Part shown: positions 37,669 to 41,974 of the stretch, piece after piece
How positions within the stretch are numbered: the first letter of the stretch is position 1
Layout of the letters: every line of letters starts with the position of its first letter
NCBI RefSeq assembly: GCF_003334405.1
Contig: NZ_QOWM01000004.1
Strand: one strand, 5' to 3'
Source of the DNA: Escherichia coli
GTDB lineage: Bacteria; Pseudomonadota; Gammaproteobacteria; Enterobacterales; Enterobacteriaceae
Length of the DNA stretch: 64,000 bases
Notes under the pieces: model-generated
The model's database searches: none
What the model was told of the DNA's origin: nothing
What the model saw: only the letters and a program-made list of their open reading frames with translations
Made by a program: the position numbers and the translations under genes

Positions 37669-40315
37669 ATGAAACTGAAAAAACTCCCCGGGTTTAGTTT
37701 GGGACTTATTGCTCTGGCGGTGGGTAATGCATATGCAACACAATTGTTGGATGATTATAGTATAATTTCCTATATGACTGATGAAGAATCGCCGATTGAA
37801 ATCAAAGATAATAATCCGATAAGTAATGGAGAGTATCTAACCACTGAAGACGAAAGCCATGCTGTGAAAGTGGATGACGGTGTAACTGGATATATAAATA
37901 ATGCCAGTGTGATGACTAGTGGTGATGGATCTTATGGTATTTCTGTTGATAGTCAAAACAAAGTATTATATATAAGCGATAGCGATATTAAGACCTCTGG
38001 AAGCGTATCTGACAAAGAAAATGGAGGGATAACAGCCAGCGCAGTAGTCAGTGAATTTGGTGGCACCATCTTTATGAATGGTGATAATTCAGTCGAGTCG
38101 GGTGGGGCATATTCAGCGGGACTTTTAAGCCAGGTTAATGATTCTGAAAAGATGGTAAATAACACCCGTCTTGAAACCACAGATAAAACGAACATTGTTA
38201 CCTCTGGGGAAAATGCAGTAGGTGTTCTTGCATGTTCAAGTCCTGGAGAGTCTCGAACATGTGTCGATGCTGTAGATGATGAAGTTAGTGATTCTAACAG
38301 TTACGAAGTTATTAGCCGTGCTGATTTAAAAATGAATGGTGGTTCCATAACAACTAATGGCATTAATAGCTATGGTGCTTATGCTAATGGGAAAAAAGCA
38401 TATATTAATTTAGATTATGTGGCACTTGAAACTGTGGCTGATGGAAGTTATGCAGTTGCTATTCGACAAGGTAACATTGATATAAAAAATAGTTCTATTA
38501 CAACAACAGGCACTAAAGCCCCCATTGCAAAAATATACAATGGTGGAGAGTTATTTTTTTCCAATGTCACCGCGGTATCAAAACAAGATAAAGGAATATC
38601 AATTGATGCATCAAATATCGATTCTCAAGCCAAAATAGCACTATTAAGTGTTGAACTTTCAAGTGCTTTGGATAGTATTGATGTTAACAAAACTACAACG
38701 GATGTAAGTATCCTTAATCGAAGTATTATCACACCTGGTAATAATATTCTGGTTAATAATACTGGAGGTGACTTAAACATAATTTCGTCCGACTCTATTC
38801 TAAATGGAGCGACTAAACTCGTCAGCGGCACAACCACGCTGAAGCTTTCAGAAAATACAATCTGGAATATGAAAGATGACTCCGTTGTTACCCATCTGAC
38901 TAATTCAGACAGTATTATCAATCTTTCGTATGATGATGGTCAAACATTTACCCAAGGAAAAACATTAACCGTAAAAGGTAATTATGTCGGTAATAATGGT
39001 CAGCTTAATATCCGCACCGTATTAGGTGATGATAAATCGGCTACGGACAGACTTATTGTTGAGGGTAATACTTCGGGTTCAACTACCGTCTATGTGAAAA
39101 ATGCTGGAGGAAGCGGCGCGGCCACGCTAAACGGGATCGAACTCATAACTGTGAATGGCGATGAATCTCCAGCAGATGCCTTCAGATAAGGTGATGCAAG
39201 GATTGCAGCTGGAGCTTTCGAATATCAACTAAAACAACAAGGCAAAAACTGGTATTTGACAAGTTATCAGTCAGTGAATGAGGAGGATAACAGCTCAGAG
39301 GGAAATTCAGAATCAACAGAAACGCCTACCCCCGTCCTGCGCCCCGAAGCTGGAAGTTACGTCGCTAACCTGGCAGCTGCTAACACTCTTTTTGTTATGC
39401 GTCTGAACGACCGTGCGGGTGAAACGCGCTACATCGATCCTGTAACTGAACAGGAGCGTTCAAGCCGACTTTGGCTACGTCAAATTGGCGGGCATAATGC
39501 CTGGCGTGACAGCAACGGACAGTTGAGAACGACCTCGCATCGCTACGTCTCGCAGTTAGGGGGCGATCTGTTAACCGGTGGTTTTACCGATAGTGACAGT
39601 TGGCGTTTGGGAGTGATGGCTGGTTATGCCCGCGACTACAACTTAACTCATTCCAGCGTGTCGGATTATCGTTCGAAAGGGAGTGTCAGAGGCTATAGCG
39701 CAGGGCTGTATGCCACCTGGTTTGCCGATGACATCAGTAAAAAAGGCGCATACATTGACTCCTGGGCGCAATATAGCTGGTTTAAAAACTCGGTGAAAGG
39801 GGATGAATTAGCCTATGAATCCTATAGCGCGAAAGGTGCAACCGTCTCGCTGGAAGCGGGTTACGGTTTTGCCCTGAATAAATCCTTTGGTCTGGAAGCG
39901 GCGAAATATACGTGGATCTTCCAGCCACAGGCACAGGCTATCTGGATGGGCGTCGATCATAATGCGCACACGGAAGCCAATGGCTCACGTATTGAGAATG
40001 ACGCAAATAACAACATCCAGACCCGACTCGGCTTCCGCACCTTTATTCGTACTCAGGAGAAAAACAGCGGTCCGCACGGTGACGACTTTGAACCTTTTGT
40101 TGAAATGAACTGGATCCATAACAGTAAAGATTTTGCTGTCTCAATGAACGGTGTGAAAGTCGAACAAGATGGGGCGAGTAATTTGGGGGAAATTAAACTT
40201 GGCGTAAATGGCAACCTGAATCCAGCGGCCAGCGTCTGGGGAATGTGGGCGTGCAGCTGGGTGATAATGGCTACAATGACACCGCAGTGATGGTGGGCCT
40301 GAAATATAAGTTCTG
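37669..40315 (+). pseudogene. ycgH: Autotransporter adhesin-like gene ycgH disrupted by frameshifts/stops
   Basis: ORF 37669..39189 (signal peptide + passenger) and ORF 39256..40290 (beta-barrel) in different frames; a further shift near 40255 precedes the expected ...VMVGLKYKF end at 40315. Confidence 0.85.
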
Positions 40316-40330
40316 ATCCCGCCGTTAGCT

Positions 40331-40359
40331 AAAAAACCGCGTCGTATTCATCGACGCGG
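40331..40359 (-). terminator. Rho-independent terminator downstream of ymgD (minus strand)
   Basis: Hairpin ccgcgtcg-tattcat-cgacgcgg with adjacent A6 on plus (T-run on minus). Confidence 0.65.
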
Positions 40360-40372
40360 TACATATGAAATA

Positions 40373-40702
40373 TTATTTTTTGCCGATAGCACGCATGGTG
40401 TCATCAATTGCCGTGATCAACAGCATTTGCGGGTCTTTAGCGCAAACCTGATTCAGTTTTTCTACCACTTTGGCGCTCAGTTCCGGAGATTGCTCAATTT
40501 TTAAATCACGGCTGGCAACGCTGGCATTACCCATTACCGCAACAATTTCTGCAACCTGTGCGCTGTCAGTTTTTGCCATTTCGTTGGCTTCTGCGCAAGT
40601 AATATAGGTTTCTGACGGCAAACCGTTTTTAATATTGTAGTCCTGCGCCCAGGTCATTGGTGCGAAAACAAACAGGCCCGCCAGTAAAGCAAATTTTTTC
40701 AT
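40373..40702 (-). CDS. ymgD: Periplasmic protein YmgD (109 aa)
   Basis: ORF 40373..40708 with signal peptide MKKFALLAGLFVFAPMTWA. Confidence 0.88.
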   Translation of the reverse strand: MKKFALLAGLFVFAPMTWAQDYNIKNGLPSETYITCAEANEMAKTDSAQVAEIVAVMGNASVASRDLKIEQSPELSAKVVEKLNQVCAKDPQMLLITAIDDTMRAIGKK

Positions 40703-40711
40703 CATCATTCC

Positions 40712-41056
40712 TTATTTCATTTTACCCAGAATTGCACCACCCGTACCGCCAATCACGGCACCTTTAATCGCCCCTTCGAGGCCATTGCCGGTCAGAACGC
40801 CAGTGACAGCACCAACGGCGGCACCCACTTTTGCACCTTTACGCGCATTTTTACCGTCGCGGCCTTTTTCTGTTACTGCACCAACACCAGCGCCAACAGC
40901 TGCACCTTTCAGTACGCCATTAACACCATTGCCAGTAAGTAAACCAACGCCTGCGCCTAGCAATGCACCTTTCGTGGTGCGGTTCATATCCGCCATCGCT
41001 GGCGTGGAGCAGAACAATGCTGAGATAAGCCCGAAGGCAAGTATTTTTTTCTTCAA
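40712..41056 (-). CDS. ymgG: Glycine-zipper protein YmgG (114 aa)
   Basis: ORF 40712..41056; signal peptide then repeated GxxxG-rich blocks. Confidence 0.88.
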
Positions 41057-41531
41057 CTTAGATGTCCGGTATTAAGTAAGTTGCACACACAATAATTTCG
41101 TCTTCAATTAAGATCTGCTTAACTAAAGAACGCTCGCTATTATTCAGATAATTCAAAATGAGCGTGGCTGTGATGATAGGAATTATGTTTTTTACGTGAA
41201 TGAGAATAATCTTAAATGAGGAATAACTCATTGATTGACAATATTTTTATTCAAGAAGTGTCATTGACTGTTAACGCAATGTTGTAAAGGTAAGATAATC
41301 TGATTTATCAATATTATTGTGTGATTTTTATGTGAGCAGAAGATATTCATCAGCAACGATTACATTAGTCATTTTATTTTGCCGACGGCCTCATTGTCGA
41401 AAGATAAGCGTACGACAGTATTATCAGAAAAGAGTGATTTTTTATCCAACTACACTTCAGCGCACTGCGTGTAAAAATGCCTCTTTCTTATGCGGGATAT
41501 CATCATTTCATCATGATGTCTTTGGTGAGCG

Positions 41532-41974
41532 GTGAACACAATACACCTGCGCTGTCTCTTCAGGATGAATCCCCTGGTCTGGTGCCTGCGGGCTGATGTT
41601 GCAGCAGAGCTTAGGTCACTTAGACGCTACTATCATTTATCCAATGGCATGGAATCGAAATCAGTCGATACCCGCAGTATATATCGTGAACTGGGTGCAA
41701 CGCTGAGTTACAACATGCGCCTGGGGAACGGTATGGAAATGAACCCTGGCTGAAGGCGGCTGTGCGCAAAGAATTTGTCGATGATAACCGGGTGAAGGTG
41801 AATAATGACGGTAATTTCGTCAATGATTTGTCGGGCAGACGTGGAATATACCAGGCAGCTATTAAAGCCTCATTCAGCAGTACGTTTAGCGGACATCTCG
41901 GGGTGGGGTATAGCCATGGTGCCGGTGTGGAATCCCCGTGGAACGCGGTGGCTGGTGTGAACTGGTCGTTCTGA
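41532..41974 (+). pseudogene. ycgI: Remnant of an autotransporter C-terminal beta-domain gene (ycgI), frameshifted
   Basis: ORFs 41532..41753 and 41762..41974 in different frames; C-terminus ...GVNWSF typical of autotransporter barrels. Confidence 0.75.

Follow-up and report, generated by a model that had tools for sequence, protein, structure and literature searches.

Decayed autotransporter genes ycgH and ycgI between ymgF and minE in a K-12-type Escherichia coli chromosome

Can two broken autotransporter genes, lying within one 4-kb stretch of an Escherichia coli chromosome, still give rise to a working surface protein, or are they what is left of adhesins that the lineage has lost? The question is raised by ycgH and ycgI in a 64,000-nucleotide stretch of contig NZ_QOWM01000004.1 (RefSeq assembly GCF_003334405.1), hereafter the window, in which an initial annotation made from the sequence had read positions 37669-41974 as an adhesin locus in the process of being lost. 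Our analysis gives us high confidence that neither gene is functional any longer and that both are what remains of classical (type Va) autotransporter adhesin genes, which flank the conserved ymgD-ymgG-ymgI group in the interval from ymgF to minE. The earlier reading of a locus being lost is supported by the lesions themselves, by the intact alleles of strains E09 and TUM1223, and by lesions that differ from lineage to lineage.

The 5.5 kb around the locus are ~100% identical to K-12-type E. coli chromosomes, with the porcine strain UMNF18 as the best database match. In MG1655 (NC_000913.3), the gene order is pdeG - ymgF - ycgH - ymgD - ymgG - ymgI - ymgJ - ycgI - minE, and both ycgH (b4491, 2648 bp) and ycgI (b4521, 344 bp) are annotated as pseudogenes. 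The window shares with MG1655 the locus, both boundaries and the lesions; the essentials of the two pseudogenes are already contained in the reference annotation and are, to that extent, already known. Positions were converted by subtracting 1,181,932 from the genome coordinate up to window position 41472, with one base less downstream, and the MG1655-mapped start of ycgH and end of ycgI coincided with the outer limits 37669 and 41974 of the initial annotation. An exact copy of MG1655 was ruled out by three single-base differences across 8 kb. The first is A in place of T at 36815 in pdeG. The second, an A/G difference at 38746 in codon 360 of ycgH (ATT for Ile in the window, as in the intact E09 allele, versus GTT in MG1655), is the sole substitution separating the two sequences within ycgH and ycgI. 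The third is a 1-bp deletion after 41472, inside ymgJ, which is apparently private to the window. The DNA thus comes from a near relative or a variant of MG1655.

The former ycgH gene and its two breaks

The ycgH pseudogene occupies 37669-40316 and, like all features of ycgH and ycgI described below, lies on the plus strand. Its whole former frame of 882 codons, delimited by the NC_000913.3 annotation, aligns end to end with the intact YcgH of E09, a protein of 887 amino acids. The initial annotation had proposed that the gene keeps its signal peptide, passenger domain and beta-barrel, and traces of all three were recovered. The N-terminus, MKLKKLPGFSLGLIALAVGNAYA followed by TQ, displays a basic n-region, a hydrophobic core and an AYA site when the translation is judged by eye, and corresponds to a predicted Sec signal peptide of 23 residues (37669-37737). 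The AC_1 autochaperone domain (PF18883) matches the window's open reading frame (ORF) at 38881-39186 with E = 5.9e-25, but the match ends at position 96 of the 114 in the model (model 1-96), where a stop codon cuts the domain. Downstream, the beta-domain PF03797 is matched by the window's own ORF at 39469-40242 (model 1-252 of 255, E = 2.6e-39). Autotransporter homology is far beyond chance, and the signal peptide, the autochaperone-ended passenger and the barrel together mark the ancestral ycgH as a classical (type Va) autotransporter. The GC content is 34-41% in the AT-rich passenger versus 50-53% in the barrel.

Uninterrupted genes at both positions were found between ymgF and minE in E09 (locus L002) and TUM1223 (locus L008), which thereby provide intact orthologues from within the species, at the corresponding chromosomal position, and mark the window copies as pseudogenes. 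Intact YcgH (887 amino acids, WP_001522908.1) carries AC_1 at residues 410-526 and PF03797 from residue 606, and the E09 protein matches TIGR01414 over 432 of 432 positions (E = 2.9e-111). The intact alleles of E09 and TUM1223 resemble the window copy in position, signal peptide, passenger type, AC_1 and barrel, with ~97.5% DNA identity over ~2.65 kb; they differ from it in their 887 continuous codons, in CAA at codon 512, in the T at nucleotide 2589 and in the C-terminal end ...VMVGLKYKF. The E09 allele also has five codons (nucleotides 352-366) more than the window copy, and the corresponding 15-bp in-frame indel site, placed at 38019-38020 by alignment to E09, is a harmless polymorphism. 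At the level of the family, AIDA-I-type autotransporters (AIDA-I, MisL, ShdA, YfaL/EhaC, Ag43) present the same order of signal peptide, beta-helical passenger, autochaperone, linker and 12-strand barrel. The barrel region gave strong matches to the MisL, AIDA-I and ECSE_1600 models; however, all matches fall under the curated equivalog cut-offs and hence express family-level likeness only, and the window copies, unlike these proteins, are broken.

The initial annotation had suggested that alignment to intact orthologues would place each lesion, and a global, base-by-base alignment of the window to E09, in which both genes are intact, did locate every one of them. Within ycgH, the two sequences are separated by three indels and by 64 to 66 substitutions, the count varying with the stretch that is aligned. 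The first disabling lesion is an in-frame nonsense codon, TAA at 39187-39189, in place of the CAA that encodes Gln512 in the intact allele. The two ORFs at 37669-39189 and 39256-40290 share one frame and are separated by CAA>TAA alone, the gap at 39190-39255 being the mere distance to the next start-like codon chosen by the ORF-listing program. At least two frame changes had been claimed for ycgH at the outset; two breaks indeed exist, but the first of them is a nonsense codon that leaves the frame unchanged. It falls within the autochaperone domain, and passenger and barrel are no longer contained in one uninterrupted polypeptide.

Both resulting ORFs are long (506 and 344 amino acids), each with recognizable domains, as might be expected if the gene were functionally split and its N-terminal ORF cooperated with the separate barrel ORF like a two-partner secretion pair. 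We nevertheless consider such a pair extremely improbable. Translation of the barrel piece could begin no earlier than a TTG at 39256; it has neither an ATG nor a visible Shine-Dalgarno sequence, and the piece itself (TSYQSVNEEDNSS...) has no signal peptide and therefore could not cross the inner membrane. Moreover, its last beta-strand and its C-terminal aromatic residue are missing, while the passenger piece lacks the end of the autochaperone domain and the linker. The split arrangement is missing from the intact alleles and from strain 63-2, and is hence not conserved.

The non-functional state that we favor for ycgH is further marked by a second lesion, a 1-bp deletion at 40241-40242 in which a T was lost (GGGGTAATG>GGGGAATG; nucleotide 2589 and codon 863 in the E09 alignment). 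A frame change near 40255 had been proposed previously; the frameshift is real, but its true site lies ~14 bp away. The C-terminal 25 residues, NVGVQLGDNGYNDTAVMVGLKYKF, give way to 15 unrelated ones, MWACSWVIMATMTPQ, and beyond the shift the original frame is still open to the old stop at 40316. Consequently, the final beta-strand and the C-terminal aromatic residue (...YKF) are gone from the window barrel. A final barrel strand with its terminal aromatic residue is needed for assembly of the barrel in the outer membrane. Neither ycgH lesion sits in a run of the affected base, the first being a substitution and the second the loss of a single T.

A full-length functional product might still be imagined through recoding, in which the TAA at 39187 is read through and a -1 frameshift occurs at 40238-40244; if the Gly-tRNA slipped by -1 within TGG-GGA-ATG, from GGA onto the GGG that overlaps it, ...WGNVGVQ... 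would be exactly restored. The chance of this appears negligible. One translation must combine two independent rare events, and in E. coli no stop codon is read through less readily than UAA. The TGG GGA ATG site does not form an X XXY YYZ heptamer, and its ATG cannot re-pair as AAT. An Rfam scan of 36900-42700 at E <= 1 returned no match, so that no known RNA element, recoding stimulator or stimulatory structure was detected across this interval. Furthermore, the lineage that bears the frameshift has gained further stops, a slip to T8 and insertions of insertion sequence (IS) elements, and none of six substitutions in it is synonymous, which is the opposite of a conserved signal. The interrupted arrangement is not conserved either, other lineages having intact single-ORF alleles or different lesions. 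The initial annotation had named a functional split or a frameshift-translated autotransporter as the finding that would overturn its reading; neither gained support.

The ycgI remnant and its deletion junction

The remnant of ycgI (b4521) lies at 41631-41974, as placed by alignment to E09 and by the NC_000913.3 annotation, and comprises the last 114 codons of a 1132-amino-acid AIDA/YpjA-like autotransporter, the C-terminal part of its barrel. These are codons 1019-1132, frameshifted, of a gene whose intact beta-domain spans residues 871-1132; a start codon, a signal peptide, a passenger and a complete barrel are all absent. A single deletion of 3084 bp removed the start codon together with codons 1-1018. 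Its junction was positioned at 41630-41632 by alignment to the E09 locus: the window up to 41631 aligns at 98.8% to positions 5716-6148 of that locus, upstream of the intact ATG at 6178, and the window from 41631 on aligns to position 9232 onward, with the T at 41631 forming one base of microhomology. The identical junction is present in K-12, SCU-171 and ES5. Alignment also revealed a 1-bp deletion inside the remnant at 41739-41740 (GGAAGTTGAG > GGAAATGAAC), which occurs in the K-12-type haplotype only and splits the remnant into two short ORFs; the remnants of SCU-171 and ES5 measure 345 bp and carry no frameshift flag.

The initial annotation had described this relic as a frameshifted C-terminal barrel fragment of ~440 bp. 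The frameshifted barrel piece and its end at 41974 hold, but only 344 bp are derived from the autotransporter, since the extra ~99 bp (41532-41630) are DNA that lies upstream of the ATG of the intact gene. The former upstream non-coding region of the lost gene, recognized by its 98.8% alignment to E09, extends over 41332-41630 on the plus strand and now carries ymgJ and a hypothetical ORF of 39 amino acids.

In E09, the full-length equivalent of ycgI encodes a protein of 1132 amino acids (WP_089502641.1). AIDA repeats, six or more in number, occur in it together with a Pertactin-type domain; a long linker of Pro-Asn repeats, (PN)n, and a beta-domain that starts at residue 871 are also present, and its barrel matches TIGR01414 at E = 4.2e-92. 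The last 114 codons align with the window remnant and the flanks are collinear, whereas the repeats, the Pertactin domain, the linker and most of the barrel are gone from the window. The name "adhesin-like autotransporter YpjA/EhaD" that the protein has received from the Prokaryotic Genome Annotation Pipeline (PGAP) is similarity-based and does not reach an NCBIfam equivalog cut-off. We treat the protein as a YpjA-like paralogue rather than as YpjA, because no equivalog cut-off is reached and the gene lies away from the ypjA locus.

The ycgI homologue of UTI89 has likewise been called a pseudogene (PMC6206680). In a filamentation screen of that strain, enrichment ran from minCDE into the ycgI homologue and a small neighboring ORF (PMC6206680). 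The positions concerned are 1,297,038-1,299,321 in UTI89 and 41631-42612 in the window, and the authors noted that linkage to minC may be the whole explanation (PMC6206680).

Spread of the lesions and the order of decay

The distribution of the lesions was quantified in 5,426 complete E. coli genomes, using exact 61-mers for the small lesions and a 120-bp probe for the ycgI junction. Coverage of the ycgI deletion junction was recorded for 4,599 genomes (85%), whereas the intact left edge of the gene was covered in only 412; the deletion is an old allele and not a recent event in K-12. Intact versions of the two genes survive in only a minority of E. coli strains. The exact 61-mer of the frameshift within the ycgI remnant was present in 1,690 genomes. 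At the nonsense site of ycgH, ~2,239 genomes carry a YcgH-type allele, with TAA512 in 1,494 and the CAA version in 694, and the 3′ frameshift of ycgH was matched exactly in 1,570. Each K-12 ycgH lesion thus occurs in ~28% of complete genomes. Poultry, pigs, humans and water are among the sources of the many natural isolates that carry the lesions. Because they recur in so many natural isolates, the lesions are neither laboratory mutations nor sequencing errors.

The same counts bear on the suggestion that the genes are really intact and only appear broken through errors of sequencing or assembly in this sequence. The window does contain one apparently private homopolymer difference (A5 versus A6 in ymgJ), but all four disabling lesions are exactly repeated in 1,494 to 4,599 independent complete genomes, including MG1655, and no ycgH lesion lies within a run of the affected base. 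Error as the cause of the broken frames is, in our estimate, next to impossible, and we return to genuine inactivation as the account of both genes.

Both genes have been inactivated independently in several lineages. SCU-171, APEC E14033 and GPEC1209 carry another pseudogene allele of ycgH, with an additional T in the T7 run at nucleotide 900 (T8) and stops at codons 262 and 599. Strain 63-2 resembles K-12 in haplotype, sharing the 3′ frameshift as well as the 15-bp indel, but retains CAA512 and possesses its own TAA at codon 311 as well as T8. In HeN100, ycgH bears an extra IS5 insertion. Judged from these comparisons, decay at the locus is ongoing and recurrent across lineages.

The T8 variant was observed both in the group of SCU-171, APEC E14033 and GPEC1209 and in the K-12-like strain 63-2. 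Its presence in two haplotype backgrounds suggests a recurrent slippage hotspot or recombination. The coding T7 run, located at 38554-38560 by alignment of alleles, is in frame in the window. Recurrent slippage at this run would suit a contingency (phase-variable) adhesin locus whose OFF state in this copy could revert; for the window copy we judge this very unlikely, given that its T7 is in frame and that the real lesions, namely a substitution, a single T loss and a 3-kb deletion, could not be reverted by slippage. A tract of 7 nucleotides is also short for a classical contingency locus. That the T7 run serves as a slippage-prone on/off switch in otherwise intact ycgH alleles is a separate proposal, somewhat less remote but still unlikely. 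If it were true, many "pseudogene" calls outside K-12 would partly be reversible phase-OFF states of a cassette-variable adhesin; even so, the K-12-type copy, with three lesions in its two genes that cannot revert, would not be rescued.

The cassette-like variability concerns the passenger. An ECIAI39_1904-family autotransporter, as in ES5 (locus L004), occupies the ycgH position as an alternative allele at the shared locus. Compared with the window, the ES5 allele is 93-99% identical in the promoter and signal-peptide region and 95-99% in the translocator, but only 33-68% identical over the passenger segment (~37719-39300), and the proteins are 61% identical overall. Because of this low passenger identity between flanks of 93-99% identity, the swap between allele types is interpretable as a cassette-like replacement of the passenger. 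The YcgH-type passenger occurs in only ~41% of complete genomes. Both autotransporter genes are dead in O157:H7 strain PV15-279 (locus L005) too, though by other routes: the ECIAI39_1904-type gene (1103-3745) has an internal stop, and the ycgI-equivalent (5090-9795) is otherwise full length with an IS1203 insertion.

The alignments and counts above establish which lesions are present, where they fall with respect to the domains, how widely they have spread in the population and that other lineages bear independent ones, and they allow an order of decay to be proposed. The 3′ frameshift of ycgH probably preceded the stop at codon 512, because 63-2 has the frameshift together with CAA512 and because the frameshift is found in 1,570 genomes compared with 1,494 for the stop. 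A K-12 haplotype probe with the missing T restored had no exact match in the genome collection, which yielded no version from before the frameshift. In the scenario that we favor, ycgH would probably have been hit first, when the loss of one T near the 3′ end stripped the barrel of the final beta-strand and the aromatic C-terminal signal (...YKF) needed for its assembly. The later CAA>TAA change in the autochaperone domain would then have cut off the entire translocator from the signal peptide and the passenger. In ycgI, one 3.08-kb deletion took the promoter-proximal part, from the start codon through the passenger and some two thirds of the barrel, after which the K-12 haplotype gained its further 1-bp deletion. 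Neither remnant should be able to make a surface-displayed protein, and the DNA would persist as neutral sequence. We infer that no protein function is left in either remnant.

Between the window and 63-2, which share the frameshift, there are 4 missense changes, 2 nonsense changes, 1 frameshift and 0 synonymous changes, a small sample; the lack of synonymous changes among the six substitutions fits a loss of constraint. In laboratory practice, ycgH serves as a neutral "pseudogene locus" for integrations (PMC12492688), and a viable reduced-genome strain, DGF-298, lacks the entire segment from ymgF to ycgI (PMC10652928).

Several observations weigh against the conclusion that these are wholly inert remnants with a known history. 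A single informative genome and the allele counts are what speak to the order of the lesions, and the same pattern could arise by recombination. When K-12 is compared with E09, the ratio of nonsynonymous to synonymous substitution rates (dN/dS) in the barrel is still low, at 0.09 versus 0.58 in the passenger; the ratio is a legacy of selection that acted earlier and shows only that most of the divergence predates inactivation. A residual product may be conceivable, for example the 506-amino-acid fragment of signal peptide plus passenger. An RpoD site with H-NS has been reported in the ymgF-ycgH spacer (PMC3946193), and a sigma-S peak from chromatin immunoprecipitation sequencing (ChIP-seq) has been assigned to ycgH (PMC4447067).

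The two reports of polymerase binding could be traced to different degrees. The RpoD motif TTGACA-19-TATAAG (PMC3946193) has no exact match anywhere in the window, and the reported site could not be placed. The numbering used for the sigma-S peak (PMC4447067) puts the transcription start site of dps at 848173, which fits only the older U00096.2, with an offset of +777; after conversion, the peak falls at ~38245-38794 of the window, inside the AT-rich passenger region (34-41% GC). The peak offers no evidence of promoter activity for ycgH, its converted position being intragenic. It fits AT-rich passenger DNA, is not evidence of function, and probably represents spurious intragenic binding. Several promoter-like hexamer pairs occur on both strands within 38245-38794. 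A consensus promoter scan was uninformative, with 19 sites versus 12.7 +/- 3.3 expected.

The genes between the remnants and the meaning of the locus

Intact ymgD and ymgG genes had been noted between the two remnants from the start, and both proved intact; ymgI and ymgJ lie there as well. On the minus strand, ymgD (40373-40708, WP_000979977.1) is a small gene with a signal peptide, ymgG (40712-41056, WP_000726974.1) encodes a glycine-zipper protein, and ymgI (41058-41231) is annotated as an intact small ORF. Where ycgH and ymgD converge, the consensus scan picked out a putative terminator on the minus strand, a GC-rich hairpin followed by a T run at 40336-40360. The YmgD accession is common to K-12, E09, ES5 and O157:H7 and was found in most loci examined, and the YmgG accession, a 100% identical protein, was present in every locus examined, from K-12 and O157:H7 to avian pathogenic (APEC) and uropathogenic (UPEC)-like strains. 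Such invariance amid decaying flanks points to probable strong constraint on two poorly characterized proteins.

The small annotated ORF ymgJ lies on the plus strand at 41332-41516. Where the ycgI-equivalent survives, ymgJ and the 39-amino-acid hypothetical ORF (WP_001131446.1), both putative genes, occupy the non-coding DNA upstream of it. At 41473-41477, ymgJ of the window has a run of A5, versus A6 in MG1655 and essentially all other genomes. A 61-mer probe for A5 reached >=99% identity in 1 of ~4,048 matching genomes. The change alters the C-terminus of the 61-amino-acid YmgJ ORF, which reads on to 41535; it represents a variant private to the source or else a sequencing error in the homopolymer.

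To the existing pseudogene annotation, our analysis adds the exact lesion types (nonsense plus frameshift) in ycgH, the 344-bp size of the ycgI remnant and the population frame. Collectively, the locus is a clean example of recurrent surface-adhesin loss in E. coli, unsurprising in itself and usable for teaching or for the dating of pseudogenes.

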